NCBI GenBank assembly: GCA_902826215.1
Contig: CADEDY010000004.1
Span: 68,667-132,666, forward strand
DNA length: 64,000 nt
Direction of reading: 5' to 3'
DNA from: an uncultured Bacteroidota bacterium
GTDB taxonomy: Bacteria; Bacteroidota; Bacteroidia; Flavobacteriales_F; PHOS-HE28
How positions within the stretch are numbered: position 1 is the stretch's first letter; each line of letters starts with the position of its first letter. The position numbers were made by a program, and so were the translations under genes. The notes beneath the pieces are model-generated. The model ran no database searches, was not told the DNA's origin, and saw only the letters and a list, made by a program, of their open reading frames with translations. Positions 2,427 through 19,193 of the stretch are shown here, in pieces.

Positions 2427-3790
2427 TGGTCTTGCGCGGATCCATCCTTACTTCCGGAAAGTGGCGTGCAGGGCTCCTTTGTGTCGTGCTCTTCCTCTGT
2501 CTCTGGCCTGGACTGAGCGACCACGTGAGCGTGGAATGGGGCATGCGCTACTTCTGGCTCCTGCTACTACCGGTGATCATACGTGTCCGTGAGCCAGGGA
2601 ACTTTTCCTTGCGCTACCTCTTCGTCCTCGCTCCTTTGTTCGCGCTGGCTTTCTGGCTGCCACATCCGCTGTTCCGATTCGGTGTGCTGTTCGCTGCGAT
2701 CTTCCTGGTGATCGAAGCCTTCGTGGGCAAATTGGATCGCTTGGCTCCGGTCTTTGCTGTCCTCGTGGCACCCATCACCCATTACTTCATCAACACCTTC
2801 GGGTTCCACGTGCGATTGAGCATCAGCAAGGTCGTCGCTCGAACATTGAAGAGCATCGACCCGGAGGCGATGGACATCGGCAATGCGCTCATGTACCAGG
2901 GGCAGGAATTCCATGTGGACCCGGAATGCATGGGACTTCGGATGATCACCACTTCCTTGATCGTGACCATGGCGCTCATCGCCCTCCGCGAAAGACGCTT
3001 GAAGACCTCGCTTTCCGAGTTCGCGCTACCTGTTCTCCTGCTCGTGACCTTCGTGTTGGTCGCCGTTTCGAACTACGTGCGCATCCTACTGTTGGTGGTC
3101 AGTGCCGCGCCTGCGGGTGGTTTCTGGCATGAAGTCATCGGGTTGATCAGCTGGCTGCTCTTCGTGTTGCTACCCATGATCCACATTGTGGAGCGTTGGG
3201 ACCGGGTTCGATCCGTTGCCTCAATGACCAAGACCGTGTGGCCGATCTGGAAACAACGTCTTGTCACCACCGCGCTTCTCCCGACCATGCTGGTCGGGAT
3301 GATCCACCCGGTGGTACCAGTGGAGGATGAACGCGACCTCTTCGCTGAGCAATTGAACATACCCGGCTGTGAACGGACCATCCTTCCCAACAACGTGGTG
3401 AGCTTCACCAGTGATCATCTGCAGATCTTCATGAAACCCGGAAAGGCATTCTACAGCAACGACCACCACCCGATGAGCTGTTGGATCGGGAGTGGCTACC
3501 ACTTCACGCACGAAGTCCTCGAACCCTTCCGTGATGGCACGATCTGCTTCGGGCAATTGAGCAATGGCGCATCCACACGGTACTCCGCATGGTGGTATGA
3601 CAATGGTTCCACCCGCACCTGCGGTCAGTTGGAGTGGCGTTGGCTTGCCGCACTTGGCGAAGGTCCGTTCCGGTTGATCAATGTCACGGCCGACACGCCT
3701 CAAGAATTGATGCGGGAGGTATCGCGGCTTTACCGACCGTTGGAGGCTGAAGGGCACCTACTGAAAGGAACGCAGATGACGCTGATGTAG
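2426..3790 (+). CDS. Exosortase (XrtN-like) with a ~170-aa Cys/Trp/His-rich C-terminal extension
   Basis: Polytopic membrane protein (about 8 TM). It contains the exosortase catalytic motif ECMGLRMITTSL (Cys-x-Gly-Leu-Arg), and conserved Arg/His lie downstream. The ATG at 2426 overlaps the TGA of the upstream VIT gene (TGATG), indicating translational coupling. The six-frame track starts the ORF at 2360, but 2426 avoids the gene overlap. Confidence 0.8.
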   Translation: MVLRGSILTSGKWRAGLLCVVLFLCLWPGLSDHVSVEWGMRYFWLLLLPVIIRVREPGNFSLRYLFVLAPLFALAFWLPHPLFRFGVLFAAIFLVIEAFVGKLDRLAPVFAVLVAPITHYFINTFGFHVRLSISKVVARTLKSIDPEAMDIGNALMYQGQEFHVDPECMGLRMITTSLIVTMALIALRERRLKTSLSEFALPVLLLVTFVLVAVSNYVRILLLVVSAAPAGGFWHEVIGLISWLLFVLLPMIHIVERWDRVRSVASMTKTVWPIWKQRLVTTALLPTMLVGMIHPVVPVEDERDLFAEQLNIPGCERTILPNNVVSFTSDHLQIFMKPGKAFYSNDHHPMSCWIGSGYHFTHEVLEPFRDGTICFGQLSNGASTRYSAWWYDNGSTRTCGQLEWRWLAALGEGPFRLINVTADTPQELMREVSRLYRPLEAEGHLLKGTQMTLM

Positions 3791-3870
3791 CGGATCAACG
3801 CTGATCCGCTCAATCCCTCTCTATCTCAGATCTGCGCTCATCAAAACGATCCGCGTCATCCGTGTTCCAT
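3790..3870. repeat. Copy of the ~45-bp 'GAACGC-GATGACGCGGATC' intergenic repeat family, preceded by a near-palindrome GCGGATCAACGCTGATCCGC
   Basis: The sequence tcatcaaaacgatccgcgtcatccgtgttccat is the reverse complement of atggaacacggatgacgcggatcgttttgatga. This matches the copies at 7888, 7968, 8421, 9328, 9444 and 10279. Confidence 0.6.
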
Positions 3871-3871
3871 C

Positions 3872-4315
3872 CTACTCCCCGATATCCTCGTTCCACAGCT
3901 CCGGCTCGGCTGCGATGAACTCCTCCATCATCTGCACACACTCCGGCAGGTTCAGGTCGATCACCTCCACGCCGTGGCTCTCCATGAAGGCCTTGGCACC
4001 AGCGAATGTGCGGCTCTCGCCCACGATCACCTTCTTGATCTTGAACTGCACGATGGTGCCCGCGCACATGTAGCAGGGCATCAGCGTCGAATAGATCGTG
4101 GTGCCCTTGTAGCTGCCGATGCGGCCCGCGTTGTTCAGACAGTCCATCTCGCCATGCAGGATCGGGTTCTTCTCCTGCACGCGCTTGTTGTGCCCCCGTG
4201 CGATGATCTTGCCGTCGCGCACCAGCACCGAGCCGATCGGGATACCGCCCTGTGAACGGCCCAAGCGGGCTTCGTCGATGGCGGCTTGCATGTGGGGGTC
4301 CATGGTGTAGGTCAT
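3872..4315 (-). CDS. CDA-fold nucleoside deaminase, Fcy1-like; probably a cytosine deaminase feeding the pyrimidine catabolic pathway
   Basis: Zinc-ligand motifs HGE (…NPILHGEMDCLNNAG…) and PCYMCAG. About 147 aa, comparable to the ~158-aa yeast Fcy1 as recalled. Located inside the pyrimidine-catabolism operon. Confidence 0.7.
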   Translation of the reverse strand: MTYTMDPHMQAAIDEARLGRSQGGIPIGSVLVRDGKIIARGHNKRVQEKNPILHGEMDCLNNAGRIGSYKGTTIYSTLMPCYMCAGTIVQFKIKKVIVGESRTFAGAKAFMESHGVEVIDLNLPECVQMMEEFIAAEPELWNEDIGE

Positions 4316-4584
4316 TTATCCGTTACATCAGCCCGAAGCACTCCAGCGTCATTCTTTCCACACATGCCGCAATACTCGGACTCATTCTTCTTGTTGTCAC
4401 ACCACTTACATCCCTTCGGATTCTTCAATGGAAATAGATGAACTATGAAGTAGCCGAATATGGGCGTGGCCAAGACGCAAATGGCCAAGGCCCCTGCAAA
4501 ACCACATGTTCGCGGTCGTCCATCCTGCCACGCCATCCCAACAACTAAGACAAGGAAAATGACACCTATGATGTAGTCCATCAA
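4312..4584 (-). CDS. Small membrane protein with a C-terminal CxxC..CxxC zinc-ribbon (hypothetical)
   Basis: Two predicted TM helices are followed by CKWCDNKKNESEYCGMCGK. Its stop overlaps the start of the deaminase (ATGA), and it sits between preA and the deaminase gene. Confidence 0.45.
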   Translation of the reverse strand: MMDYIIGVIFLVLVVGMAWQDGRPRTCGFAGALAICVLATPIFGYFIVHLFPLKNPKGCKWCDNKKNESEYCGMCGKNDAGVLRADVTDK

Positions 4585-4597
4585 ACTTGTGATCTGG

Positions 4598-5947
4598 TTA
4601 CCCTTTGTAGTGCCTTGGCTTCTTCGTCACCAACGCCTCCGCTGGCTCCGGCACCCAATGATGCAGCCCACCAGCCAGCGGATCGTCAAACGTCTTCGGA
4701 ATGTTCCCTGCCGCCGTGCGCTCACCCCAAGTCAGTTGCTCCTTGCCGTCATCGCGGCGCTCCATGGTGATGCACTCTTCCACCGGACAAACGATGGAGC
4801 AGAGGTTGCAGCCCACGCAGTTCTCCTCGATGATGCTCGGAATGCGGATCAGCGGGTCGCTGGATAGACCGATGGCCTGGTGCGCACCGTCCTCGCAGGC
4901 GGTGTAGCACAGCTGGCAGCCGATGCACTTGTCGGCGTTGATCTCCGCGACGACCTTGTACTTCAGGTTGAGGTCCTCCCAATGCACGATGTTCGGCAGC
5001 GCCTTGCCCCGGAAATCATCCAAGGTCTTGAAGCCCTTCTCGTCCATGTAGCGCTCTAGGCCTGACTTGAGATCGCGGATGATGCCGAAGCCGTAGTGCA
5101 TGACCGCAGTGCAGACTTGCACCGAGGTGGCACCGAGCAGAATGAACTCCGCCGCATCGCGCCAGTTCTCGACACCACCTATACCGCTGATGGGTATTCC
5201 CACTTGCTTGTCCTGCGCACAGTTCTTCAGCATGTTCAAGGCGATCGGCTTCACGGCCGGACCGCAGTAGCCGCCGTTCGTGCTCTTGCCATCCACGTTG
5301 GGGTATGGCACGAAGGTGTCCAGGTCCACGCCCACCACACTTTGGATGGTGTTGATCAAGGAGATCGCATCGCTCCCACCAGCCCTGGCCGCGCGCGCCG
5401 GACGCGTGATATCCGAGATGTTCGGTGTGAGCTTCGTGATCACGGGGATCTTGGCCACTTCCTTCACCCACTCAACAATGGTCTGCAACACCTTCGGCTC
5501 CTGCCCCACCGCGCTGCCCATGCCGCGCTCGCACATGCCGTGGGGGCAACCGAAGTTCAGCTCGATGCCATCGGCGCCAGCGTTCTCCACGTCGCGGACG
5601 ATCTGGTGCCATTCCTCCTTCGTCTCCACCATCAGCGAGGCGATCACCGCATGGTCAGGGAAACGCTTCTTCACCTCGCTGATCTCGCGCAGGTTGTCCT
5701 TTAACGGCCGGTCGGTGATCAGCTCGATGTTGTTGAAACCCACCATGCGCTTGTCCCGGTAGTTCACAGCGCCGTAGCGGCTGCTGACATTCACCACTGG
5801 CACGCCGAGGGTCTTCCACACGGCACCGCCCCAGCCCGCGTCGAAGGCTTTCATGATCTGGTAGCCGCTGTTCGTGGGTGGCGCGGAGGCCAGCCAGAAA
5901 GGGTTCGGGGATTTGATACCGGCGAGATTGGTTCGGAGATCGGCCAT
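4598..5947 (-). CDS. preA: NAD-dependent dihydropyrimidine dehydrogenase subunit PreA (DHOD-like TIM barrel + 2x[4Fe-4S])
   Basis: N-terminus MADLRTNLAGIKSPNPFWLASAPPTN. FMN/DHODH-like core (GADGIELNFGCPHGM). Two C-terminal ferredoxin motifs, CIGCQLCYTACEDG and CVGCNLCSIVCPVEEC. Confidence 0.9.
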   Translation of the reverse strand: MADLRTNLAGIKSPNPFWLASAPPTNSGYQIMKAFDAGWGGAVWKTLGVPVVNVSSRYGAVNYRDKRMVGFNNIELITDRPLKDNLREISEVKKRFPDHAVIASLMVETKEEWHQIVRDVENAGADGIELNFGCPHGMCERGMGSAVGQEPKVLQTIVEWVKEVAKIPVITKLTPNISDITRPARAARAGGSDAISLINTIQSVVGVDLDTFVPYPNVDGKSTNGGYCGPAVKPIALNMLKNCAQDKQVGIPISGIGGVENWRDAAEFILLGATSVQVCTAVMHYGFGIIRDLKSGLERYMDEKGFKTLDDFRGKALPNIVHWEDLNLKYKVVAEINADKCIGCQLCYTACEDGAHQAIGLSSDPLIRIPSIIEENCVGCNLCSIVCPVEECITMERRDDGKEQLTWGERTAAGNIPKTFDDPLAGGLHHWVPEPAEALVTKKPRHYKG

Positions 5948-5949
5948 TT

Positions 5950-5986
5950 GATTAGCTGATTAGCTGATGTGACGATTAGCTGATGG
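5950..5986. repeat. Left terminal inverted repeat of the four-helix-bundle gene cassette (GATTAGCTGAT x3)
   Basis: gattagctgat-tagctgat-gtgac-gattagctgatgg. Its reverse complement, CCATCAGCTAATC, recurs at 6549-6561. Confidence 0.65.
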
Positions 5987-6000
5987 TTGGCGGGCGACAG

Positions 6001-6528
6001 CTACTTGGTGGACTTCGTTCGTTCGATCAAACGTTGCTTACTCGTTCCGATGATCTTATTGAGGATGCGCATGACACGTTGGATGCGGGCGATGAGGTCC
6101 TCATCAATGCCTTTGTCTTGGGTCGCGGCGATGAGGTAATACCAATATTCGGCTTCGTCGGCTTCCTTCAACGCGATCTTCAGCTTGTGAATGAAGTCCT
6201 TCAGGCTTTCGGCATTCTGGGCTTCCTTGGAATTCGCTCCTGGCGAACATGCCGACCGCTCGAACTGGTCGATCAACCATGCGCGCTCACAACCGAGTTG
6301 GTTCACGAATCGGATTGTGCGAACGGACAATTCAAAAGTCTCCTTGAGCAGCAGGTTCTCGCGATACAACGGGCTACCGGAATAGCTGGCCTGCGGCTCG
6401 TGAGCGACCATTGCGTCAAGCTGCTCCACACGATCTTCCTCGATCACAGCATCGCAGATCGCCAGCCAATCGGAGCGATCCCCAGTGATAAACTCATCAT
6501 GCTCTTCCATCATGCCAGGCATTTTCAT
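6001..6528 (-). CDS. Four-helix-bundle protein (TIGR02436-like; 23S rRNA intervening-sequence protein family) inserted between preT and preA
   Basis: The C-terminal half, SKEAQNAESLKDFIHKLKIALKEADEAEYWYYLIAATQ, matches the hallmark of this family. A possible shorter start lies at the ATG at 6411-6409 (MVAHEPQ...). Confidence 0.75.
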   Translation of the reverse strand: MKMPGMMEEHDEFITGDRSDWLAICDAVIEEDRVEQLDAMVAHEPQASYSGSPLYRENLLLKETFELSVRTIRFVNQLGCERAWLIDQFERSACSPGANSKEAQNAESLKDFIHKLKIALKEADEAEYWYYLIAATQDKGIDEDLIARIQRVMRILNKIIGTSKQRLIERTKSTK

Positions 6529-6561
6529 CAGCTGATCCGCTAATCATCCCATCAGCTAATC
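6527..6561. repeat. Right terminal inverted repeat of the four-helix-bundle cassette (ATCAGCTGATCC...CCATCAGCTAATC)
   Basis: It is the reverse complement of the left-hand GATTAGCTGATGG. It contains the cassette gene's start codon (6526-6528) and the preT stop codon (6560-6562). Confidence 0.65.
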
Positions 6562-7882
6562 ACTTCCCCAAGTAGGTATCGATCCCATGCGCCGCCTTCT
6601 TCGCTTCAGCCGCCGCGTTCACCACTTCCACACCACCGTTCATCGCATCCCCTGCAGTAAAGTATTTGGCGTTGGTCGTTTGGAAGCGCTCATTCACCAC
6701 GATGCGCCCTTTCTGATCCAACATGAGGCCTGAGACCTGCTTCAACAGTTCCACTTGTTTTCCTTGACCGGTCCCCAGCAACACCATATCACAAGGTTCC
6801 AGGAACTCGCTGCCCTTGATGGCTTCCAGCTTCCCATTGGCGGAACTGTTCCGGATGAACTTGACCCCGGTCACGGAGCCATTGCCCATCACTTCAACGG
6901 GCGTCACATTGAACAGTGCCTTCGCACCGCTCTTCTTCGCCAGATCGAACTCGAAGGTGTACGCACCCATCTCTTCCGGACCACGACGATAGGCTATCGT
7001 CACGCTCTCCGCGCCCATCCGGCAGCTTTCGCTCGCGGCATCCATCGCTGTGTTTCCGCCCCCGAGCACGATCACCTTGTTGCCGACCGGCGTTGCTTGG
7101 TGCTTGTTCCGCAGTACTTCCACGAACTCAAGCGCACCCATCACGCCTTTCTTGTCTTCGCCGGGAATGCCTAGCGCCGAAGTGCCGCCCAAGCCGATGC
7201 CGATGAAGATGGCGTCATAGTCCTTCTCCAAGCGCTCAAAGTCAACACGACCGGTCACTGGCTTGTTGTAGTGGGCGTTGAAACCGAACTGCTCCTGCAA
7301 GTAAGCGATCTCATCAACCGCTTCTTCGTTGGTGAGCTTGTACGGTGCGACGCCATAAACACACAAGCCACTTGGCTTTTCGCGCGCCTCGTAGATATCC
7401 ACCGCGTGGCCCAACATCCGCAATTCACACGCACAGGAAACACCCGCTGGCCCCGCACCGATCACAGCTACCTTCTTGCCTGTCGGCTTCCCGGTGATGA
7501 AGAGCTTCTTCTTCGCGTGGATCACCTTGTCCGTGGCATGTGCCTGCAAGCGCCCGATCTCGATCGGCTTCACATCGCTTTTGGTGTACACGCAGGCCCC
7601 TTCGCACAGTTCCTCCGTCGGACAGACGTTCCCGCAGGCATGTCCCATCCAGTTGCTGTCGTAGATCGTCTTCGCGGCCCCGTCCTTGTTGTCGTTGTTG
7701 ATCTGCCGGATGAAGGTCGGGATATCGATCCCCGTGGGGCACGCGTTGATGCACGGCGCATCGTAGCAATACAGGCAGCGCGAACTCTCGTAGTACGCCT
7801 CGGTATCGCTCATCAGCGGCTTCTTCGGGTGGAAGTTGGCTGTGAACTCGGCTTCGGTGGTGGGTCGTTTGTATTCTGCCAT
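6560..7882 (-). CDS. preT: Dihydropyrimidine dehydrogenase subunit PreT (glutamate synthase small-subunit-like, FAD/NAD(P) + [4Fe-4S])
   Basis: MAEYKRPTTEAEFTANF...YCYDAPCINACPTGIDIP...CGNVCPTEELCEGAC, followed by Rossmann motifs VAVIGAGPAG and VIVLGGGNTAMD. The six-frame track starts this ORF at 8110, but the 76 codons upstream of 7882 merely translate the tandem DNA repeat, so the start is placed at 7882. Confidence 0.88.
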   Translation of the reverse strand: MAEYKRPTTEAEFTANFHPKKPLMSDTEAYYESSRCLYCYDAPCINACPTGIDIPTFIRQINNDNKDGAAKTIYDSNWMGHACGNVCPTEELCEGACVYTKSDVKPIEIGRLQAHATDKVIHAKKKLFITGKPTGKKVAVIGAGPAGVSCACELRMLGHAVDIYEAREKPSGLCVYGVAPYKLTNEEAVDEIAYLQEQFGFNAHYNKPVTGRVDFERLEKDYDAIFIGIGLGGTSALGIPGEDKKGVMGALEFVEVLRNKHQATPVGNKVIVLGGGNTAMDAASESCRMGAESVTIAYRRGPEEMGAYTFEFDLAKKSGAKALFNVTPVEVMGNGSVTGVKFIRNSSANGKLEAIKGSEFLEPCDMVLLGTGQGKQVELLKQVSGLMLDQKGRIVVNERFQTTNAKYFTAGDAMNGGVEVVNAAAEAKKAAHGIDTYLGK

Positions 7883-7887
7883 GGGGA

Positions 7888-7934
7888 ATGGGACGCAGAT
7901 GGCGCGGATCTTTATGATTTCCGCTGATATGATT
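7888..7934. repeat. ~47-bp repeat element, copy 1 of a tandem pair with 80-bp period (gggacgcagatggcgcggatctttatgatttccgctgatatgatttg)
   Basis: Direct repeat of 7968-8015. Member of the GATGACGCGGATC family. Lies immediately upstream of the preT start. Confidence 0.7.
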
Positions 7935-7967
7935 TGTCGGTGTGGTGCGTGGGGTGCTTCATGCGAT

Positions 7968-8015
7968 GGGACGCAGATGACGCGGATCTTTATGATATCC
8001 GCTGATATGAGTTTG
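7968..8015. repeat. ~47-bp repeat element, copy 2; left inverted repeat of the GxxExxY cassette
   Basis: gggacgcagatgacgcggatctttatgatatccgctgatatgagtttg. The reverse complement of its core is found at 8421-8449. Confidence 0.7.
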
Positions 8016-8409
8016 TATGGACCTTCCTTTTGACTTGGGGCTTCTTGCCGAAGTTCAGGAGCAAGCCGACTTCCACATCGGTGGCTTTGAGGTAGTTGAT
8101 CAACTGGCACTCGTGCTCTTCGCAGATGCTCTCCGCAGCTTTGAGTTCCACGATGACCAGTCCCTCGACGATAAGGTCGGCATAGTAGCTACCGACCTCC
8201 ACGCCATCATAGAACACCGTGATCGGTTGTTGACGCTTTACCTCGAGCCCAGCGGAGATTAACTCATGGAACATGGCGTTCTCATAGACCTTTTCCAAAA
8301 ACCCGTAGCCCAAGGCGTTGTAGACCTTGTAGAACATCTGAATGACCTGCTCGGTCAGTTCAGAATGCATGTAGTTCTCTTTATTCAGATCAGGCATGGC
8401 AATTCGCAT
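7990..8409 (-). CDS. GxxExxY protein (TIGR04256-like, PD-(D/E)XK-related) inserted between the beta-ureidopropionase gene and preT
   Basis: YKVYNALGYGFLEKVYENAMFHEL ... VIVELKAAE ... GLLLNFG match the family signature. The 3' end of the ORF runs into repeat copy 2. Confidence 0.75.
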   Translation of the reverse strand: MRIAMPDLNKENYMHSELTEQVIQMFYKVYNALGYGFLEKVYENAMFHELISAGLEVKRQQPITVFYDGVEVGSYYADLIVEGLVIVELKAAESICEEHECQLINYLKATDVEVGLLLNFGKKPQVKRKVHTNSYQRIS

Positions 8410-8420
8410 TGATCCGCGCT

Positions 8421-8449
8421 CATCATAAAGATCCGCGTCATCAGCGTTC
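8421..8449. repeat. Right inverted repeat of the GxxExxY cassette (catcataaagatccgcgtcatcagcgttc)
   Basis: It is the reverse complement of gaacgctgatgacgcggatctttatgatg, which is copy 2 at 7968. Confidence 0.7.
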
Positions 8450-9315
8450 TACAACTCCGTCAGCCGTCCATACGTCTCCGGCCTCCGATCCCTGAAGAAC
8501 TGCCATGTGCTCCGCACCTCCTCGATCATGTCCAGGTCGAATTCTGCGACGAGCAGTTCATCGTCATCACGCGAGGCTTGCTTGAAGATCTGTCCGCGCG
8601 GATCCACGAAGTAGCTCTGCCCATAGAACTTGCCGAGGTTCCAAGGCTTCTCCTCCCCTACACGGTTGATGCAGCCCATGAAGTAGCCGTTCGCCGCAGC
8701 GTGCGCGGGTTGCTCCAGCTTCCAGAGGTATTCGCTGAGACCAGCCACGGTGGCGCTGGGGTTGTAGACGATCTCGGCACCGTTGAGGCCAAGGCAACGC
8801 GCGCCATCGGGGAAATGGCGGTCGTAGCAGATGTACACGCCCACCTTGGCGTACTTCGTCTGGAACACCGGATAGCCGAGGTTGCCGGGCTTGAAGAAGA
8901 ACTTCTCCCAGAAACCGCTCGTGTGCGGGATGTGGTTCTTGCGGTACTTGCCCAGGTAGGTGCCATCCGCATCGATCACCGCGGCGGTATTGTACAGCAC
9001 GCCGGCCTGCTCCTTCTCGTAGATCGGAACGATGATCACCATGTTGTACTTCTTCGCGTACTGCGCCATCAGCTCCGTGGTGGGACCGGGCACGCTCTCC
9101 GCGCTCTCGTACCATTTCCGGTCCTGGCCCGGGCAGAAGTAGGGCGTGTTGAAGATCTCCTGCAAACACAGGATCTGCACGCCTTGCTGGCCGGCCTTCT
9201 CGATGTACGGGATGTGCTTCTGCACCATCGCATCGATGATCTCCGGTATGGTGCCTTCGCCCTCCGTCTTAGGGAGGCTCATCTGGATAAGGCCGCTCTT
9301 GATGTTCCTCGGCAT
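8449..9315 (-). CDS. Beta-ureidopropionase (N-carbamoyl-beta-alanine amidohydrolase), nitrilase/CN-hydrolase superfamily
   Basis: CN-hydrolase fold with the catalytic Glu-Lys-Cys context (…ILCLQEIF…, …YRKNHIP…, …VGVYICYDRHFPD…). Sits in the pyrimidine-catabolism operon. Confidence 0.85.
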   Translation of the reverse strand: MPRNIKSGLIQMSLPKTEGEGTIPEIIDAMVQKHIPYIEKAGQQGVQILCLQEIFNTPYFCPGQDRKWYESAESVPGPTTELMAQYAKKYNMVIIVPIYEKEQAGVLYNTAAVIDADGTYLGKYRKNHIPHTSGFWEKFFFKPGNLGYPVFQTKYAKVGVYICYDRHFPDGARCLGLNGAEIVYNPSATVAGLSEYLWKLEQPAHAAANGYFMGCINRVGEEKPWNLGKFYGQSYFVDPRGQIFKQASRDDDELLVAEFDLDMIEEVRSTWQFFRDRRPETYGRLTEL

Positions 9316-9327
9316 GGGTTGAATGAT

Positions 9328-9370
9328 TGGAACGCTGATGACGCTGATTTAGGTGATCCGCGCTGATGGG
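9328..9370. repeat. ~45-bp repeat family copy (atggaacgctgatgacgctgatttaggtgatccgcgctgatggg)
   Basis: Direct repeat of 9444-9491. Located immediately upstream of the beta-ureidopropionase start. Confidence 0.6.
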
Positions 9371-9443
9371 TCTTGGGTTGCTGGAACCAATGTTAAGAGG
9401 AAGTACGCGCATTTCCTAGACTGGTCCAGGTGGGTGCGGAAGG

Positions 9444-9491
9444 ATGGAACGCTGATGACGCGGATTAGGCTGATCAACGCGGATCTAAGGG
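9444..9491. repeat. ~45-bp repeat family copy (atggaacgctgatgacgcggattaggctgatcaacgcggatctaaggg)
   Basis: Shares the GAACGCTGATGACGCGGAT core. Confidence 0.6.
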
Positions 9492-9519
9492 ACTGTTGGG
9501 TTGGACTAGGGTGATGTTT

Positions 9520-9610
9520 GGGCGTGCCCCTCGCAAAAGCCTCGGGTCGGGCTATCCGCTATACTCCTCGCTCGTTCCTCGCTGCGGGGTGCCGCTTCTA
9601 TCCCTCAGGC
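9520..9610. repeat. ~95-bp intergenic repeat family, copy 1 (GGGCGTGCCCCTCGCAAAGCCTCGGGTCGGGCTATCCGCTATACTCCTCGC...CTGCGGGGTGCCGCTTCTATCCCTCA)
   Basis: Near-identical to 11771-11897. Matches 14836-14933 and 10136-10262 in reverse complement. Confidence 0.7.
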
Positions 9611-9632
9611 AAGCGCTATAATATCAACCATA

Positions 9633-10121
9633 TCACCGGACTGGCCTATCCAATACTCGCAATGCCGCATCCGTAAGATTCGTCCGAGCAGGATGCCCCA
9701 TTCCTAAGAAGACCTTGAGCTTTTCGCCTAGAGTTTCTGGGGCAAGATCCTCCACGCTCCACATTGCTTGTCCCATCACTTCCGGAGGCCACAGCAACAT
9801 TGTGTCCCACCTTGCTGAACCCGTAAGTCTCGATGCAATTTCAGTCCCCAAGTACTCCGTGAGCAACTGCAACATGACCTCTCTTCCCTTTGCGTAAAAG
9901 GAGACCTGTTTGCAGTCCTTCTTCGACATGTAGAAGACGATAAACCAATCATCAATAACAGGTCCTTCCGCCGTCGTGTATTCTCCGATCAGGCGAACAT
10001 CGCTCAACACGATTTCCCCCACACGTTCGCCTTGGATCTCCCAAATCAGCTTACCACCCTCGCTGAAGACTCTACCCGAGAGTTCGGCTTCATCTCGCTC
10101 GGTCTTGCTCTTGACAGTCAT
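9633..10121 (-). CDS. Hypothetical cytoplasmic protein (no recognisable domain), start placed at MTVKSK
   Basis: 162-aa ORF between the beta-ureidopropionase and dihydropyrimidinase genes, flanked on both sides by copies of the ~95-bp repeat. The longer 198-aa ORF in the track would begin inside a repeat copy. Confidence 0.4.
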   Translation of the reverse strand: MTVKSKTERDEAELSGRVFSEGGKLIWEIQGERVGEIVLSDVRLIGEYTTAEGPVIDDWFIVFYMSKKDCKQVSFYAKGREVMLQLLTEYLGTEIASRLTGSARWDTMLLWPPEVMGQAMWSVEDLAPETLGEKLKVFLGMGHPARTNLTDAALRVLDRPVR

Positions 10122-10135
10122 CCTTGAGGAGTTAT

Positions 10136-10262
10136 GGATTTCGCGTGAGCGATTGCAGCGGAAAGCCCACAGCGCGGTAATCCGCGCGAGGACTTGCAGG
10201 CCCGGGTCGGAGCCCGGGCTGAACTCCAAGCGCGACGGCGAGTCTTCGAGCCGGCACGCCCA
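10136..10262. repeat. ~95-bp repeat family, diverged copy (reverse orientation)
   Basis: The reverse complement ggttttgggcgtgccggctcgaag...gtcctcgcgcg...cgctgtgggctttccgctgcaatcgctcacgcgaaatcc aligns with the copy at 14836-14933. Confidence 0.5.
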
Positions 10263-10278
10263 AAACCTTCCTCATCTG

Positions 10279-10328
10279 CATTTCATATCAGCGTTAATCT
10301 GCCCGATCCGCGTCATCTGCGTTCCATC
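10279..10328. repeat. ~45-bp repeat family copy (reverse complement: gatggaacgcagatgacgcggatcgggcagattaacgctgatatgaaatg)
   Basis: Same GGAACGCAGATGACGCGGATC ... GCTGATATGA organisation as 7888-7934. Confidence 0.6.
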
Positions 10329-11711: not shown

Positions 11712-11770
11712 GGATCAGAAAATCAGATGATCAGACGATCAGTTGATCGAATGCGGTTCCAAGATAATGA

Positions 11771-11897
11771 GGGCGTGCCCCTCGCAAAGCCTCGGGTCGG
11801 GCTATCCGCTGTACTCCTCGCAGGGGCGATGCATGCTCTTCCTTCGGGCGAAGCATGCTTCGCCCCTACTGCGGGGTGCCGCTCCTATCCCTCACGC
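11771..11897. repeat. ~95-bp repeat family, copy 2, carrying an internal 16-bp perfect palindrome GCGAAGCATGCTTCGC
   Basis: gggcgtgcccctcgcaaagcctcgggtcgggctatccgctgtactcctcgc...ctgcggggtgccgctcctatccctcacgc. The 3' end of the element supplies the last codons and the TAG stop of the NCS1 permease. Confidence 0.7.
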
Positions 11898-13552
11898 AGC
11901 ACACGTTTACCCTTCAACGCCCAATACACGGCGAACGCCACACCCGTTCCGCTGAACCACGAGAGCGTGTAGAGGACCTCCAGCGGCTTCACCCAATATC
12001 CGATGATGGCAACGAACACACCAGCCACCAAAGCCACGATGGCTGCTCTGTTCACACCCGCGTGCGGTCCATCCTCCATGTACAGGTCAGCGATCACCAA
12101 CGTGCGCTTGCGGATGATAAAGTAGTCGCAGAGCAGGATGCCGAGCACGGGGCCGAGCAGTCCGCTGATGAAGATGAGGATCCCGCTGATCTCGTTCATC
12201 AACCACCACGGGCAGATGATGATGCCAACGAGTCCCGCCATAACACCACCAACACGGAAGCTGATCTTCTTCGGGAACAAATTGCTGAACGCATTCGCCG
12301 GTGCGATCACGTTCGCCGCGATGTTGGTGCTGAGCGTAGCGATGAGCATGGCGATCTGCGCGAAGATGACCACACCCGGGCTCTTGAACTTGTCCACCAG
12401 CGAGACCGGATCCCACGGCGCATCCTCGGCGATGAGCACATCATCGAAGGCCACCACGGCCGCGCTGGTGACGAAGATGCCCACGAACGAATAGAAGAGC
12501 ATGGTTCCCGGTAGCCCGATGAACTGTCCGGCTAACTGGTCCTTCTGGCTCTTCGCATGGCGTGTGATGTCGGAAATACTGATGGACATGGTGGCCCAGA
12601 AACCGACCATGGCGGTGAACCACATCAGGTATTGCCAATAGCCGACCTCGCTTGCACCGGCACTGTCGGCCTTGAACTCCAGCTTGGCCGACTCATGACC
12701 TTCCGCATCCTTGAACTGGATTTGCACCTGCGCATCCATGCCGATGTTGATTGCGGTCATCGGCGCGGTGATCGGCATCCATTCGCCCGGCCTGGTTTCG
12801 TTTTGCCTTGGATAGCTCAACCGATAGTGTGTGGCCTTCGGCGTGCCATCGGTGTTCAAGAGCGGTGACAATTGTAACGTGCGGCCGGGCGCATCGGCGT
12901 AAGGCAACTGCGTGATCGTGCTTTGCTGTAATTGCTTCCCTTGCTCCAATGCATTGGCAAAACCACCCGCACTATTCGCGCCCCACACGATCAGCACGAT
13001 GCCGATCAGGATCAATATCGGCGCACTCCAGTCCTCGAGCCAACGGATGCTCTCGGTGCCTTTCCAGATGAACCAGATGTTGATGAGCCAGAACACGCCG
13101 AAGCAGATGAACTTGCCGATGCTCAGCGCCACATCACCTTCCTGACCTGTTGCCGCGTTCCAGATGGAGTAGATCGCCAGCCCACCGATCCACGTCTGCA
13201 CACCGAACCAGCCGCAGGCGACGATGGCGCGGAGCAGACTCGCGATATGGATGCCTTGCGTCCCGAAAGCCGCTCGCCCTTGCACGGGGAACGGGATACC
13301 GTACTTCACGCCCGCATGACCGTTCAATACCATCGGTATGGTGATCACCAAGTTCGCCAGGCCGATGATCACCAAGGCCGCCCGCCAGCTGAGGCCCGCA
13401 CGCATCATGTACGAAGCGAGCAGGTAGGTGGGGATGCACACCGCCATGCCCACCCACAGCGCGGCGAGGTTCCACTTGGTCCAGGTGCGCTGCTCGGGCG
13501 GGATGGGCGCGAGGTCCGGGCTGTAGAGCGGGGAACGGGTGATATCTTCCAT
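11885..13552 (-). CDS. NCS1-family nucleobase:cation symporter (cytosine/uracil/hydantoin permease-like) with a ~95-aa hydrophilic insertion
   Basis: 12 predicted TM segments with the NCS1 pattern (…WNLAALWVGMAVCIPTYLLAS…, …GIPFPVQGRAAFG…). Start assigned to MEDITRSP at 13552. An alternative ATG 15 codons upstream at 13597 is not excluded. Confidence 0.8.
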   Translation of the reverse strand: MEDITRSPLYSPDLAPIPPEQRTWTKWNLAALWVGMAVCIPTYLLASYMMRAGLSWRAALVIIGLANLVITIPMVLNGHAGVKYGIPFPVQGRAAFGTQGIHIASLLRAIVACGWFGVQTWIGGLAIYSIWNAATGQEGDVALSIGKFICFGVFWLINIWFIWKGTESIRWLEDWSAPILILIGIVLIVWGANSAGGFANALEQGKQLQQSTITQLPYADAPGRTLQLSPLLNTDGTPKATHYRLSYPRQNETRPGEWMPITAPMTAINIGMDAQVQIQFKDAEGHESAKLEFKADSAGASEVGYWQYLMWFTAMVGFWATMSISISDITRHAKSQKDQLAGQFIGLPGTMLFYSFVGIFVTSAAVVAFDDVLIAEDAPWDPVSLVDKFKSPGVVIFAQIAMLIATLSTNIAANVIAPANAFSNLFPKKISFRVGGVMAGLVGIIICPWWLMNEISGILIFISGLLGPVLGILLCDYFIIRKRTLVIADLYMEDGPHAGVNRAAIVALVAGVFVAIIGYWVKPLEVLYTLSWFSGTGVAFAVYWALKGKRVLREG

Positions 13553-13621: not shown

Positions 13622-14338
13622 ATGGGCCGCCTCACCACCCTACTCCTTATTTGTACACTCCTGTGCGTTTCGACCGTTCGCGCACAAAAGACAGTCTACT
13701 TCCCCGTGCGTGGTGTGACCTGGCCGGTATGCGAAAGCGTACCCGATGCCTTTGTCCATCGCGTACGCCACGTCCTCGCCGATAGCGCGAAGATGTTCCC
13801 CGAATATCCGGACCCGGTGCCCTTCACCTGCGACCTCCTCAAAGGCCTTCAAGAAGCGATGACCGATGATTCCGTACGCTACCACTTCGAGCGTCTGTCG
13901 CAGCGCTATTGGTCGGTCGGTCCCCACTATAACAACGTAGAGCGCTACATCGATCGACACATTGACTTTCACTTGGCCATCGCATGCACAGGGCACTTCT
14001 TCTGCGACGTGCGCATCATGGGCCTGAAGAAGCTCTACGACTACCGACGCATGCGGCCGATGGTTTGCGCGACGCAAGAGCACTACGTCCAATTGGAAAA
14101 GCAGGATCGGCAAGCCGTGCGCTACCTGATCCATGTGCTGGAGAACACGCCGTGGAGCATCAGTGGCAGCGAGAACGCGACCATCCACGAGGTCTACATC
14201 CGGGAGATCGCCAAGACGCTCGATCTGTTCACCGGACAAGAACACGTCGACCCCAAGGATCTGCGGCAGTACCTGCCGCTCACCGATGAGAAGTTGCGCG
14301 TAGCGCTGATCGATTGGCGGAAATGGCTCGACCCATGA
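13622..14338 (+). CDS. Secreted hypothetical protein (signal peptide MGRLTTLLLICTLLCVSTVRAQ)
   Basis: The longer track ORF 12932-14338 overlaps the permease on the opposite strand. The first ATG followed by a signal peptide is at 13622. Confidence 0.5.
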   Translation: MGRLTTLLLICTLLCVSTVRAQKTVYFPVRGVTWPVCESVPDAFVHRVRHVLADSAKMFPEYPDPVPFTCDLLKGLQEAMTDDSVRYHFERLSQRYWSVGPHYNNVERYIDRHIDFHLAIACTGHFFCDVRIMGLKKLYDYRRMRPMVCATQEHYVQLEKQDRQAVRYLIHVLENTPWSISGSENATIHEVYIREIAKTLDLFTGQEHVDPKDLRQYLPLTDEKLRVALIDWRKWLDP

Positions 14339-14832
14339 GGTGTTTGTTGATCCTTGCATTCTGTACCGCGAACGCCTTGTGCGCGCAGGATGCTGATGCC
14401 CTGGCACGAGCACTTGAACGCAAGAGTCCACGCGCATTGGACCGCTGGATGAAGCGCGAACTGCATGAGCACCGCAAAGGCACGCGGATAACCTCACCGG
14501 GTAGTAGCTACACGAGCCACTCCGCTACCTACGACACCCTTGTCGCTTGGCTGCGGCTACAACCCGGCGTGGTGGATGCCGAATGGGACCGCTGCATCGG
14601 CAAGCTCGATCTCTGGCCAGGGCACTCCACCATCGGTGTGCAGGTGCGGCTTGGTGGTGTGGTGCGCGAGCGCTGCTACACGTTGCAGGAAGGACGGCCC
14701 GGCACCATCAAACTACCCGGCTGGCGGCCGAAAGTGCGGAAGACGCGGGAAGAGTTGAAGCTGGTGGGGATAAGGGAATGCGCGGGGTTCGTGACGGAGC
14801 AGCGAGGGTATTGCGCGGGGTTGTCGCGATGA
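14335..14832 (+). CDS. Secreted hypothetical protein (signal peptide MRCLLILAFCTANALCAQ)
   Basis: Its ATG overlaps the upstream stop (ATGA at 14335-14338), indicating translational coupling with the preceding gene. Confidence 0.45.
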   Translation: MRCLLILAFCTANALCAQDADALARALERKSPRALDRWMKRELHEHRKGTRITSPGSSYTSHSATYDTLVAWLRLQPGVVDAEWDRCIGKLDLWPGHSTIGVQVRLGGVVRERCYTLQEGRPGTIKLPGWRPKVRKTREELKLVGIRECAGFVTEQRGYCAGLSR

Positions 14833-14835
14833 AGG

Positions 14836-14933
14836 AATTCGCGTGAGCGATCGAAGTGGAAAGCCCACAGCGAGGCACGAGCGAGGACTTGCAACGAAGA
14901 GCGCGACCCGAGGCTTTGCGAGGGGCACGCCCC
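14836..14933. repeat. ~95-bp repeat family, copy 3 (reverse orientation)
   Basis: The reverse complement ggggcgtgcccctcgcaaagcctcgggtcgcgctcttcgttgcaagtcctcgctcgtgcctcgctgtgggctttccacttcgatcgctcacgcgaattcc matches the 9520 and 11771 copies. Confidence 0.65.
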
Positions 14934-14935
14934 AA

Positions 14936-15313
14936 TTAGAAAGATGGATCACCGCGACGCTGCAAATCCGCAACAGCTCCTGTGCATGAGAGAATCCAGG
15001 AGCCCATTTTGGCAAAGTCCAAGCTGAAGGCCACAGTATCCTTACCAGTTTCGATATCGAACATCTCAGGCCGCGAAATGGAGAGAAGCCATCCACCAAC
15101 AACCGAACCGGCTTCAGTTCCGTTTGATTCGACGATCTCGGCTTGAGAGAACGTGAGCTTCAGTCGACGATGTTCTGAAGTTAGGATAATCACGATCGTA
15201 GGACCCATGCGAAGGTCTTCGATCACGAAGTCCCGAATGTCCAGTTCCTCCTCGTTGATCACGAAGTCCACGACTGGAACGAAACCTACGACGTCGATGA
15301 GATCAAAGACCAT
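14936..15313 (-). CDS. Hypothetical acidic protein, last gene of the beta-alanine/pyrimidine operon
   Basis: Open frame abutting the aminotransferase stop. No recognisable motif. Confidence 0.35.
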   Translation of the reverse strand: MVFDLIDVVGFVPVVDFVINEEELDIRDFVIEDLRMGPTIVIILTSEHRRLKLTFSQAEIVESNGTEAGSVVGGWLLSISRPEMFDIETGKDTVAFSLDFAKMGSWILSCTGAVADLQRRGDPSF

Positions 15314-16668: not shown

Positions 16669-17160
16669 CTAATTCTCAACTGGTCCGACATCCATGCCGT
16701 CGTATGACTCCAACCCCAATTCATCCGCAAGCTTGTACAGTTCGCCATTTCGGATGTGCAAGGACTGCGGTGTATGTGTCTCGATTCGCTCCACGTGGAG
16801 CCAATGTGTGCTCATATCATCCGCCTGATACACTTTAACGAAATGATAACCTCGCCCACTAAGTTCCTTAGCAGCACTCTCCAACTTCTCAGGGTTTGGA
16901 TCAGTGAAGAAATAGCCCCAAAGCATGTCTCCATCAACGTTCCATTTGGTTTCAGCGCGCATGTTCGCAAACATGTCCTTCATCTGCTCAAGGGTCATCT
17001 TCTCTTTCTGTTTCTGGGTCGTGCTATAGTCGCCTGCAACTTCGGTTGTACACGCACTGAAGACCGCAGCGCCAACCATCGCAGTGGCCAAGTGCAAGAT
17101 TTCGTTCGGGAATACTCGACTAGTCACGACATCCAATTGGTTTTGCCTTCCGGATTCCAC
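16669..17160 (-). CDS. Putative lipoprotein with an RraB-like (regulator of RNase activity B) domain; hypothetical
   Basis: Lipobox-like LATAMVGAAVFSAC. C-terminal segment WGYFFTDPNPEKLESAAKEL...GYHFVKVYQ resembles RraB/DUF695 proteins. The start is uncertain (17160 or the ATG at 17079). Confidence 0.4.
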   Translation of the reverse strand: MESGRQNQLDVVTSRVFPNEILHLATAMVGAAVFSACTTEVAGDYSTTQKQKEKMTLEQMKDMFANMRAETKWNVDGDMLWGYFFTDPNPEKLESAAKELSGRGYHFVKVYQADDMSTHWLHVERIETHTPQSLHIRNGELYKLADELGLESYDGMDVGPVEN

Positions 17161-18698: not shown

Positions 18699-19190
18699 AT
18701 GCCCTCCGTAGATATTCTCTCCAAGGTCGACCTGCAAATGCTCGACAATGCCATCAACGTTGTGAAACGCGAGATCGAGAGCCGGTACGACCTACGCGGG
18801 ACCAACAGCACGGTGGAAGTGGACAAGAAAGCACTGACCATCAAGATCAGCACCGAGGACCATATGAAACTGGACGCGGTGCTCGATATCCTGTTGGAAC
18901 GAAGCGGCAAACAGAAGGTGGACGTGCGCAGTTTCGACCTGAAGGAAGAGCCGGTGCCGAGCGGAAAGACCCTTTACCGCATCATCAAAGTGAAGCAAGG
19001 GATCGAACGCGAGACAGCTAAGAAGATCGTGAAGGCGATCAAGGATAGCGGGCTCAAGGTCCAACCACAGATCATGGACGACCTGATCCGTGTAACGGGC
19101 AAGAAGATCGATGACCTCCAAGCTGTGATGGCTGTTTGCAAGGAGAAGGATTTCGAATTGCCCCTGCAGTTCGACAACATGAAAAGCTGA
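18699..19190 (+). CDS. yajQ: YajQ-family (UPF0234) nucleotide-binding protein
   Basis: MPSVDILSKVDLQMLDNAINVVKREIESRYDLRGT... Full-length match to the YajQ family pattern (~163 aa). Confidence 0.85.
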   Translation: MPSVDILSKVDLQMLDNAINVVKREIESRYDLRGTNSTVEVDKKALTIKISTEDHMKLDAVLDILLERSGKQKVDVRSFDLKEEPVPSGKTLYRIIKVKQGIERETAKKIVKAIKDSGLKVQPQIMDDLIRVTGKKIDDLQAVMAVCKEKDFELPLQFDNMKS

Positions 19191-19193
19191 TCC

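Follow-up and report, generated by a model that had tools for sequence, protein, structure and literature searches.

A GxxExxY-family gene enclosed by palindromic intergenic repeats in a pyrimidine-catabolism operon of Bacteroidota

The window, by which we mean the whole 64,000-nucleotide stretch of Bacteroidota DNA analyzed here, contains a GxxExxY-family gene lodged between two genes of a pyrimidine-catabolism operon and bounded on both sides by inverted repeats. A preliminary description of the locus had recognized this arrangement, which our profile matches and the complementarity of the arms (86%) confirm. It had also regarded the repeat as the terminal repeat of the gene itself, and here our results differ: the repeat belongs to a widespread and mostly ORF-less family. 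The interpretation that we tentatively favor, at slightly less than an even chance, is that the gene encodes a vertically inherited nuclease recognizing these ends, and that the gene-less hairpins are its non-autonomous partners; both the nuclease activity and the mobility are features that we infer.

The GxxExxY cassette and its repeat arms

The features of the operon, in window coordinates, are the following:

3767-3868, no strand assigned: ORF-less inverted doublet of the arm family of the cassette, between the deaminase gene and orf178
5949-6562, minus strand: companion cassette with a four-helix-bundle (23S_rRNA_IVP) gene at 6001-6528 and its own inverted repeats of GATTAGCTGAT units
6560-7882, minus strand: preT, dihydropyrimidine dehydrogenase small subunit, true start at 7882
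7888-7935, minus strand: distal downstream arm, duplicated in direct orientation at a period of 78 bp
7936-7965, minus strand: 30-nt spacer between the two downstream arms
7966-8013, minus strand: proximal downstream (3') arm, from repeat comparison and profile
7990-8397, minus strand: GxxExxY/PDDEXK_3 gene, 135 aa from a conserved ATG (139 aa if the start is 8409)
8412-8449, minus strand: upstream (5') arm in the sense of the operon strand, outer end GAAC, from repeat comparison and profile
8449-9315, minus strand: bup, CN-hydrolase, beta-ureidopropionase-like, upstream neighbor of the cassette (PF00795 in related loci)
9329-9367, minus strand: solo arm, 12 nt upstream of the bup start
9446-10325, no strand assigned: doublet enclosing orf198, again of this arm family, with 84% complementarity between arms 9446-9484 and 10287-10325

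The GxxExxY ORF matches both TIGR04256 (E 3e-40, 137 bits against a cut-off of 35) and PF13366 PDDEXK_3 (E 7e-42, 142.9 bits against a cut-off of 22). The family given earlier for a 139-aa ORF at 7990-8409 therefore stands, with the qualification that translation probably begins at the 8397 ATG and not at 8409, because the orthologues start with a conserved MPDLNK. The residues G36-F-L-E39-K-V-Y42, D78, E88 and K90 (numbered on the 139-aa form) are invariant across 44 homologues, and the protein shows the restriction-endonuclease-like alpha-beta fold. Among its structural neighbors, Cas4-type and restriction-enzyme-type DNA nucleases rank best and tRNA-splicing endonucleases are included in the weak ones, and a PDB sequence search returned no match at E up to 1. 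As judged from its sequence, the gene product belongs to the PD-(D/E)XK proteins, retains the active-site signature intact and is a predicted nuclease. The GxxExxY/PDDEXK_3 family is very large, with at least ~8000 clusters in each of both searches, and its function is given as 'Unknown' (PMC3424549). In the searchable literature 'GxxExxY' appears in passing mentions only and the end motif in no paper, and no description of a partnership of nuclease and hairpin was found there.

The upstream arm takes in the GxxExxY 5' UTR, its outer GAAC sharing one base with the bup stop codon TAG, and the proximal downstream arm reaches into the gene over its final ~8 codons and stop codon. Segments of 36 nt each from these two arms (7971-8006 and 8412-8447) show the 86% complementarity mentioned above. 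The two direct copies downstream of the gene are 94% identical over 48 nt (47/50 identical in a gapped alignment of 51 columns), and the distal copy, which stops 5 nt short of the preT start codon, occupies the position of the single arm in the orthologue L221. All arms reported earlier, including the duplicate upstream of preT, are thus present, with limits corrected to 7966-8013 and 8412-8449 and with a period of 78 rather than 80 bp. A duplication reaching into the 3' end of the GxxExxY gene, as in L048, was rejected for the window, the similarity of the spacer to that end not being significant (p 0.13). The preT start ATGGCAGAATAC at 7882 is kept in all orthologues, so that the 76-aa extension (to 8110) in the 516-aa ORF 6560-8110, which contains ISADIIKIRVICVP and ISAEIIKIRAICVP, is an artefact of reading through two arms and, as previously noted, only apparent. 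False N-terminal extensions of this kind and spurious small ORFs are caused by the arms in gene calls.

A search with a 19-mer arm core, allowing up to 3 mismatches, gave 8 matches in the window, compared with a shuffle-based expectation of 0.03, and an nhmmer profile built from the arms recovered exactly 8 arms (E 3e-12 to 9e-11; next match E 0.23). All eight fall within 6.6 kb around the GxxExxY gene, the five additional ones (3767-3805, 3830-3868, 9329-9367, 9446-9484 and 10287-10325) being located in the same operon. The solo arm at 9329-9367 is found in L207, L213 and L221 and is missing from L001; a 3-4-nt ACC(C) repeat around it is the sole candidate for a target-site duplication, and microhomology-mediated deletion fits it equally well. 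Within the doublet 9446-10325, orf198 carries its own inverted Flavo-1-like repeats and represents a nested element. The inverted repeats of the four-helix-bundle neighbor (5949-5985 and 6526-6562) differ from the GxxExxY arms, in agreement with the preliminary description.

Folding and pairing of the arms

Folding of the 586-nt transcript predicts pairing of the 5' arm with one or the other downstream arm (z -3.85), and the RNA minimum-free-energy fold pairs the arm at 8412-8449 with the proximal arm at 7966-8013. The doublet 3767-3868 folds both as RNA (-49 kcal/mol, z -3.8) and as DNA (-23 kcal/mol, z -4.6). Single arms have no significant fold of their own (z -0.6 to -1.8), and hairpins within them were rejected. 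These folds would suit an RNA-level element of the 23S-rRNA intervening-sequence type, in which the paired arms form a stem that is a substrate of RNase III or of the encoded nuclease, cassette RNA is freed and the flanking cistrons are separated, the gene being either cargo or processing enzyme. Such intervening sequences are excised by RNase III (PMC4990558), and the neighboring cassette encodes the very protein family that was first found in them and that is still uncharacterized (PMC11270868). The exact placement of the elements at cistron boundaries and the tRNA-splicing endonucleases among the weak structural neighbors point in the same direction.

We nevertheless consider an RNA-level element unlikely. 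The arm mismatches comprise 28 that are G.U in the sense strand, 24 that are G.U in the antisense strand and 118 that pair on neither strand; the transcribed strand therefore has no G.U excess over A.C, the strand asymmetry that served as the test for RNA function is not found, and most mismatches disrupt pairing on both strands. Likewise, the complementarity of an inner arm to its own partner hardly exceeds that to the arms of other elements (10.05/18 matches within against 8.86/18 between elements). In these comparisons it is the sequence of the arms that is conserved and not the pairing between them, and a purely structural role would leave the conservation of primary sequence over 29-68% GC unexplained. 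Furthermore, the cassette is antisense to the operon in L014 and lies outside operons in L231, and the best structural neighbors of the protein are DNA nucleases.

The end family beyond the window

The ends belong to a family of the form AAT(A/G)GAACGCNGATGACGCNGAT, whose exact motif of 17 specified bases occurs in at least 120 metagenome stretches on contigs of 29-68% GC; an intact GxxExxY gene is present in only one of these stretches. The copies are mostly ORF-less inverted doublets of 80-125 bp. We found no target-site duplications flanking the 47 doublets (74-200 bp) of the metagenome loci; these flanks are often inverted themselves, the palindrome running on outward for varying distances. 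The N positions of the core gave a mixed and uninformative pattern. A phage or plasmid origin was considered and rejected, since a single viral locus (IMG/VR) and a single plasmid record (Trichlorobacter) indicate that phages and plasmids are not the main carriers of the element. A known RNA family was similarly rejected: Rfam at E up to 1 gave no match on the GAACGC arms, the sub-threshold Flavo-1 matches all falling on another repeat.

For the GxxExxY genes of subfamily 1 the end type considered was, in short form, GAACGCNGATGACGC. Inverted ends of the GAAC(G/A)CNGAT type were found at 10/10 further independent loci of this subfamily (L014, L015, L048, L096, L221, L225 with two genes, L230, L231 and, more loosely, L224); L230 derives from Methylococcaceae, and L224 is a viral contig with a looser match to the ends. 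The second GxxExxY subfamily, for which the result rests on one orthologous group, has a different end, TTTCACGCAAAGG, and the four-helix-bundle genes have other, unrelated repeat types, which implies that the end type follows the protein type. Inverted repeats are present at all other GxxExxY loci examined and have been retained by the orthologues; the repeat-less loci that the preliminary description had named as evidence against its claim were not encountered among them.

The prevalence of ORF-less copies could alternatively mean that the repeats are REP/BIME-like hairpins of the host, acting as mRNA stabilizers, attenuators or host-protein sites, with the GxxExxY gene an unrelated tenant that lasts in the loop because an insertion there does no harm. 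Consistent with such a role, doublets of the window arm family occur at pyrimidine-catabolism operon junctions in L001, L005, L018 and L051, none of which shows a GxxExxY gene nearby (for the latter three, within 10-20 kb), and this enrichment in the operon even at loci with no GxxExxY gene seen nearby also fits a role of the arms in the operon itself. About 31% of the ends lie at most 40 nt downstream of a long ORF, and there are other tenants nested in doublets, such as orf198. We also considered that the TAG of ATAGAAC supplies the upstream stop codon, as it does in the window and in L225, but with 5/52 ends after a long ORF this is only a weak trend. Against host hairpins with a chance tenant, GxxExxY is the only protein family that is repeatedly and directly bounded by these ends, and the four-helix-bundle genes, which are as small and as common at the same junctions, never have them; covariation of protein and end would not be expected of a random tenant. 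In the window the arms lack a following T-run and are thus not classical intrinsic terminators. We hold this explanation to be quite improbable.

Inheritance and turnover

The bup|preT junction is likewise the site of the orthologues (93, 91, 87 and 73% protein identity), each exact GxxExxY protein maps to one locus only, and no identical gene copies at different loci were found, the closest relatives being likewise restricted to single loci. The upstream arm is identical to those of L207 and L213 at 49-50 of 51-52 nt (94-96%), as against 54-67% identity at fourfold-degenerate sites in bup and the GxxExxY gene. The cassette has thus been vertically inherited at the bup|preT junction of a clade and is not recently mobile, and both the protein and the arm are under purifying selection. 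The strong conservation of the upstream arm could also reflect promoter or 5' UTR function and not nuclease recognition. The number of arms is by comparison labile: L221 has a single downstream arm, L207, L213 and the window have two each and L048 has three, and an identical subfamily-2 protein is accompanied by 1, 2 or 4 hairpin units upstream and by 2, 3 or at least 5 downstream. The duplication in the window is one case of a recurrent and fast-changing amplification of arms or hairpin units beside GxxExxY genes. As a separate observation, the arms produce strain-level length variation at operon junctions.

The occupancy of junctions in this operon differs from lineage to lineage. In L221 the four-helix-bundle cassette is absent and preT and preA are 3 nt apart; in L213 it is replaced by a gene for a HicA-family toxin preceded by a UPF0150-like ORF, and YhcG/DUF1016 nucleases are found at junctions in L207 and L213. 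L225 has several (two) GxxExxY genes in one operon. The earlier view of 'selfish' small genes at operon junctions is borne out as regards this variable occupancy, and overstates mobility, given vertical inheritance, single-locus occurrence and purifying selection. In L001, a nested relative and the closest genome, the cassette has been lost. It offers no clean empty site, as its bup|preT junction shares no sequence with that of the window and holds a different hairpin, and the boundaries of the insertion cannot be read from it. The cassette-less L001, the nuclease-fold gene between conserved genes, the patchy distribution over lineages and junctions and the other selfish modules there would be compatible with a free-standing homing endonuclease that cuts cassette-less operon alleles near the junction and is copied in by repair with the repeats as by-products, but this is very improbable, since homing neither needs nor explains the conserved inverted ends or the ORF-less doublets at unrelated loci, the gene also occurs at non-homologous sites (beside a tRNA gene; between signaling genes), homing endonuclease genes do not typically persist vertically for so long under purifying selection, and L001 has another hairpin in place of a recognizable empty site.

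A proposed nuclease-hairpin partnership

Under the favored interpretation, that of a nuclease with gene-less partners, the GxxExxY gene lies in the interior of one member of a widespread palindromic intergenic element family. The predicted nuclease would recognize the AAT(A/G)GAACGCNGATGACGCNGAT ends, probably as paired or extruded DNA, would probably act as a dimer on the tandem GACGCNGAT units, and would work in trans to maintain, copy or amplify the hairpins without a gene, in a relationship like that of RAYT transposases to REPINs, with an enzyme of unrelated kind. The arms might secondarily pair in the operon transcript and loop out the cassette, which may explain the tolerance of insertions at operon junctions. 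Tying the GxxExxY family to a specific conserved DNA motif provides a directly testable biochemical substrate. Should the nuclease maintain the hairpins, they would constitute a second, mechanistically independent, long-lived and vertically inherited system of repeat plus enzyme in bacteria, one reaching well past the Pseudomonas and enterobacterial REPIN paradigm.

A broader and more doubtful proposition is that GxxExxY nucleases are the enzyme partners of phylum-spanning palindromic elements, a PD-(D/E)XK counterpart of REPIN-RAYT, and that together with other small proteins they define an undescribed class of persistent hairpin-bounded mini-cassettes. Members of such a class would consist of inverted arrays of 7-9-nt units around a gene of ~120-200 aa, would also exist as gene-less hairpins and would populate operon junctions in Bacteroidota and beyond; candidates are the Avd-like four-helix-bundle proteins (23S_rRNA_IVP), whose arms are of the GATTAGCTGAT type, and ORFs of unknown kind with Flavo-1-like arms. 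If so, 'Flavo-1 RNA' and the 23S intervening-sequence phenomena could be special cases of it.

Comparison with known systems

Integron attC sites have RYYYAAC/GTTRRRY cores, one at the 3' end of each cassette, in an array beside the integrase. They were rejected as a model here: the ends ATAGAAC...GTTCTAT agree with the core in AAC/GTT only, the ORF has arms on either side instead of one 3' site, and the neighbors form a catabolic operon. The Cas4/RecB-type and restriction-type nucleases are 13-25% identical in sequence to the GxxExxY protein, which differs from them in being a bare nuclease core of 135 aa; the window has no CRISPR or restriction-modification context. With MITEs, Correia and ERIC elements and palindromic intergenic repeats the elements share terminal inverted repeats of ~20-23 nt, an excess of gene-less short forms that far outnumber the gene-bearing form, and intergenic placement near gene ends. 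They differ from MITEs and insertion sequences in that the doublets show no target-site duplication, there is no known transposase family and there are no multiple identical copies, and the cassette keeps its orthologous position over long divergence.

As in 23S rRNA intervening sequences with an ORF (PMC4990558), a small ORF lies inside terminal inverted repeats within a transcribed unit, and the protein family of those sequences is present with the same architecture at the next junction of the operon. The predicted RNA fold contains the stem around the ORF, and covariation and G.U asymmetry are absent. Unlike those sequences, the GxxExxY cassette lies between protein-coding operon genes and not in a 23S/16S rRNA helix, and it encodes another protein family.

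The closest resemblance is to REPIN-RAYT systems. In accounts of RAYT genes (10.1101/2022.05.22.493013, PMC5581495, PMC3116915) these are described as single-locus, vertically inherited and under purifying selection. The likeness consists in a single protein gene flanked by inverted copies of a repeat, in the window and at ten other loci, in the occurrence of that repeat elsewhere mostly as ORF-less inverted doublets forming hairpins, and in a gene that, unlike an insertion sequence, is single-locus, vertically inherited and under purifying selection. REP sequences are lineage-specific, whereas GxxExxY-type ends are conserved across phyla at 29-68% GC. REPIN-RAYT systems have tens to hundreds of repeats per genome; here, with 64 kb of genome covered, 8 arms lie within 6.6 kb. 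The arms are further distinguished as tandem ~9-nt CGCNGAT units, and several GxxExxY genes are possible per operon (L225). Finally, RAYT is an HUH/Y1 (IS200/IS605-like) transposase and the GxxExxY protein has the PD-(D/E)XK fold; as the latter matches only PD-(D/E)XK families, the elements described here would represent an analogue of REPIN-RAYT and not a member of it.

The GxxExxY gene and its arms in the pyrimidine-catabolism operon

The cassette belongs to a pyrimidine-catabolism operon encoded on the minus strand, in which a clear member of the GxxExxY/PDDEXK_3 family, with its start set by orthologue comparison at the ATG at 8397, separates bup from preT. The repeats that the preliminary description had placed around this ORF are real: two direct copies (7888-7935 and 7966-8013) are 94% identical, and the inverted partner at 8412-8449 gives 36-nt arms that are 86% complementary. 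The proposed tandem duplication is also present, with a period of 78 bp start-to-start rather than 80, and the 76 aa that seem to extend preT at its N-terminus are, as had been supposed, only apparent, an artefact of following the ORF through the two arms. With ≤3 mismatches allowed, the window has 8 copies of a 19-nt core (0.03 expected), and an arm profile search of the 64-kb window recovered the same 8 arms and nothing else, all within 3767-10325.

Operon genes in operon order, and further members of the arm family, in the window
13597-11885, minus: permease, first in the order
11711-10332, minus: dihydropyrimidinase (dht), after the permease
10229-9633, minus: orf198, between dht and bup
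9315-8449, minus: bup, beta-ureidopropionase-like, between orf198 and the GxxExxY ORF
start ATG 8397, minus: GxxExxY ORF, between bup and preT
7882-6560, minus: preT, after the GxxExxY ORF
6528-6001, minus: four-helix-bundle gene, between preT and preA
5947-4598, minus: preA, after the four-helix-bundle gene
last in the order listed, minus: deaminase, after preA
3767-3868, same operon: ORF-less doublet of inverted arms, folding well both in RNA form (z -3.8) and in DNA form (z -4.6)
9446-9484 / 10287-10325, same operon: doublet arms whose interior holds orf198
9329-9367, same operon: solo arm of the same family

In the window the small inserted ORFs have a GC3 of 0.55-0.62, and the operon genes one of 0.83-0.90. 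High-GC3 genes are also interspersed with other small ORFs whose GC3 is low (0.54-0.60), at 3221-3757, 4312-4584, 13640-14497, 14713-15102, 16669-17160 and 18792-19448; these ORFs may be additional junction tenants, and most of these six had no match in Pfam or NCBIfam, and 16669-17160 matched RraB (PF06877). A motif upstream of bup, TAGGAAATGCGCGTACTTCCTCTTAACATTG, is kept in the window (9386-9416, minus strand) and the related loci L001 (8010-8040), L207 (4978-5010) and L213 (4982-5010) and is missing in locus L221; one possibility is a native promoter or regulatory site that has come to lie between two arms.

The arm family beyond the gene

The repeat had been taken for the terminal repeat of the GxxExxY gene; it does bracket the gene, but the arms belong to a larger, mostly ORF-less family. 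A metagenome scan for GAACGCNGATGACGCNGAT returned at least 120 stretches, on contigs with a GC content of 0.29-0.68. Among those listed, an intact GxxExxY gene is found only in L096, inside an element of 502 bp whose ends are the same, and fragments of such a gene in two others; the most frequent form, ~80-125 bp long, is an inverted doublet that has no ORF and the ends AAT(A/G)GAACGC...GCGTTC(T/C)ATT. Elsewhere in the Bacteroidota, too, ORF-less doublets are found at junctions of this operon (L051, L018, L005, L001), one in L051 being exactly at the bup/preT junction.

The orf198 doublet is a nested element, because inverted copies of another repeat enclose orf198 in turn. This third repeat family (GGGCGTGCCCCTCGCAAAGCCTCGGGTCGGGCTATCCGC...) occurs in the window at 9517-9611, 11765-11898, 14834-14938 and 10136-10177, with sub-threshold matches to Rfam Flavo-1 (RF01705; 34.7, 33.6 and 24.7 bits versus a gathering score of 42). 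As inverted copies of this family enclose orf198 in the window and, at the corresponding dht/bup junction of L001, another ORF, the 'Flavo-1 RNA' may be an arm of a further element that bounds an ORF.

The preT/preA junction varies among close relatives (window 5949-6562; L221 7780-7784; L213 7836-8302). A four-helix-bundle cassette occupies it in the window, L001 and L207; in L213 its place is taken by a HicA-family toxin gene (PF07927, 33 bits) with a UPF0150-like ORF ahead of it, without inverted repeats; L221 has no insert and 3 nt between the genes. At the permease/dihydropyrimidinase junction a PD-(D/E)XK-type YhcG/DUF1016 gene (356-366 aa) is seen in L207 (265-1335) and L213 (2132-3232), and the window has repeats only.

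End type, inheritance and amplification

The association of gene and repeats extends to every further gene examined of subfamily 1, the window's type: all have inverted GAAC(G/A)CNGAT-type ends (L014, where the gene is antisense to the operon; L015; L048; L096; L221; two genes in L225; L230, annotated Methylococcaceae; and L231, adjoining a tRNA gene). A second GxxExxY subfamily (KYGPGLFESVYEE), at the preT/preA junction of Chitinophagaceae-type operons, has ends of the form TTTCACGCAAAGG, unlike subfamily 1, and four-helix-bundle genes at similar junctions have unrelated repeats (GATTAGCTGAT units or AT-rich 7-8-nt units). Therefore end type tracks protein type, the subfamily 2 case being one orthologous group. 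An outer inverted repeat, TAGTAACTACTCAGTAC / GACTGCTGAGTAGTTAC, encloses the L230 cassette (2432-2449 / 2925-2942), which looks nested in another palindromic element.

The exact window protein was found on six metagenome contigs, in the order bup-Gxx-preT in all, and relatives of 93, 91, 87 and 73% identity (L207, L213, L221 and L225, respectively) occupy the same junction; no exact GxxExxY protein occurred at two different loci among those examined. Judged by pairwise Bup, Dht and PreT identities, L001 falls beside L207 and L213, within the group that bears the cassette, which makes loss of the cassette in L001 most likely. Its 141-bp bup/preT junction shares no sequence with that of the window and has a hairpin whose sequence is of a further type (8949-8966 / 9033-9050; 18 nt, 83% complementary, GTTGTC units). 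Between the window and L207 or L213 the upstream arm together with the 5' UTR (51 nt) is 94-96% identical, versus 54-67% at fourfold-degenerate sites in bup and the GxxExxY gene, which argues that this arm is under purifying selection or kept uniform by some copying process.

Downstream of the gene, L221 has one arm, ending GCGTTCCATTCCC right before the preT ATG, L207 and L213 have two at a 57-nt period with the proximal arm decaying, and the window has two, 94% identical, at a 78-nt period. Arms are also duplicated in L015, L018 and the orf198 doublet, and in L048 there are three copies, spaced at a 155-bp period, each taking in the gene 3' end. In subfamily 2, tandem arrays of whole hairpin units (89 or 125 nt) lie on both sides of the gene: L243, L244 and L245 encode an identical protein (gene 1501-1878) flanked upstream by 1, 2 or 4 units of 89 nt and downstream by 2, 3 or at least 5 units of ~125 nt, which is strain-level copy-number variation. 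Thus the duplication upstream of preT is real, though not singular: it is one case of a recurrent, fast process. Arrays of 8-nt units (GATCAGNN / GATTAGCT) without an enclosed gene were seen in the window (11712-11750) and L221 (4900-4960), and a hybrid arm in L221 joins GATTAGCTGAT and GACGCTGAT units, which suggests recombination between arms of different families, or arm growth through the addition of units.

Proposed sequence recognition and a possible role for the nuclease

At positions 20-37 the arms match their own partner just slightly better than arms of other elements (10.05 versus 8.86 of 18 sites). Among the mismatches of 20 elements whose transcriptional orientation is known, 28 were sense-strand G.U, 24 antisense G.U and 118 paired on neither strand, with no excess of the sense over the antisense class. 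The conserved feature of the arms is sequence, not pairing. This weak pairing signal, together with conservation of the ends from 29 to 68% GC, points to a protein that recognises the end sequence, rather than to hairpin formation itself, in RNA or DNA, as the selected property. A rival reading as an IVS-like element for RNA processing (PMC4990558), which would accord with arms pairing in the transcript, is rated lower; such pairing may nevertheless be why insertions inside the operon are tolerated. No target-site duplications were seen.

The GxxExxY/PDDEXK_3 family is very large and nearly absent from viral contigs, and its function is given as "Unknown" in the one survey listing it (PMC3424549). 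In the best-supported reading the GxxExxY gene would be the protein-coding member of a palindromic element family, its nuclease would recognise the conserved ends, many gene-less doublets would be its non-autonomous partners, and gene and doublets would persist through vertical descent. We infer that the nuclease binds or cuts the ends, and that it copies or amplifies the hairpins. Host REP-like hairpins with the gene as an unrelated tenant are rated lower, as is a free-standing homing endonuclease. We found no paper on inverted repeats around GxxExxY genes or containing the motif, which, coverage being incomplete, is absence of evidence only.

The REPIN-RAYT relationship is the closest analogue of this proposed nuclease-doublet partnership (10.1101/2022.05.22.493013, PMC5581495, PMC3116915); the GxxExxY system falls outside that class because the enzyme fold differs. 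Repeat-plus-enzyme systems are already known, and what would be new in this one is the enzyme, along with ends that are conserved to an unusual degree.
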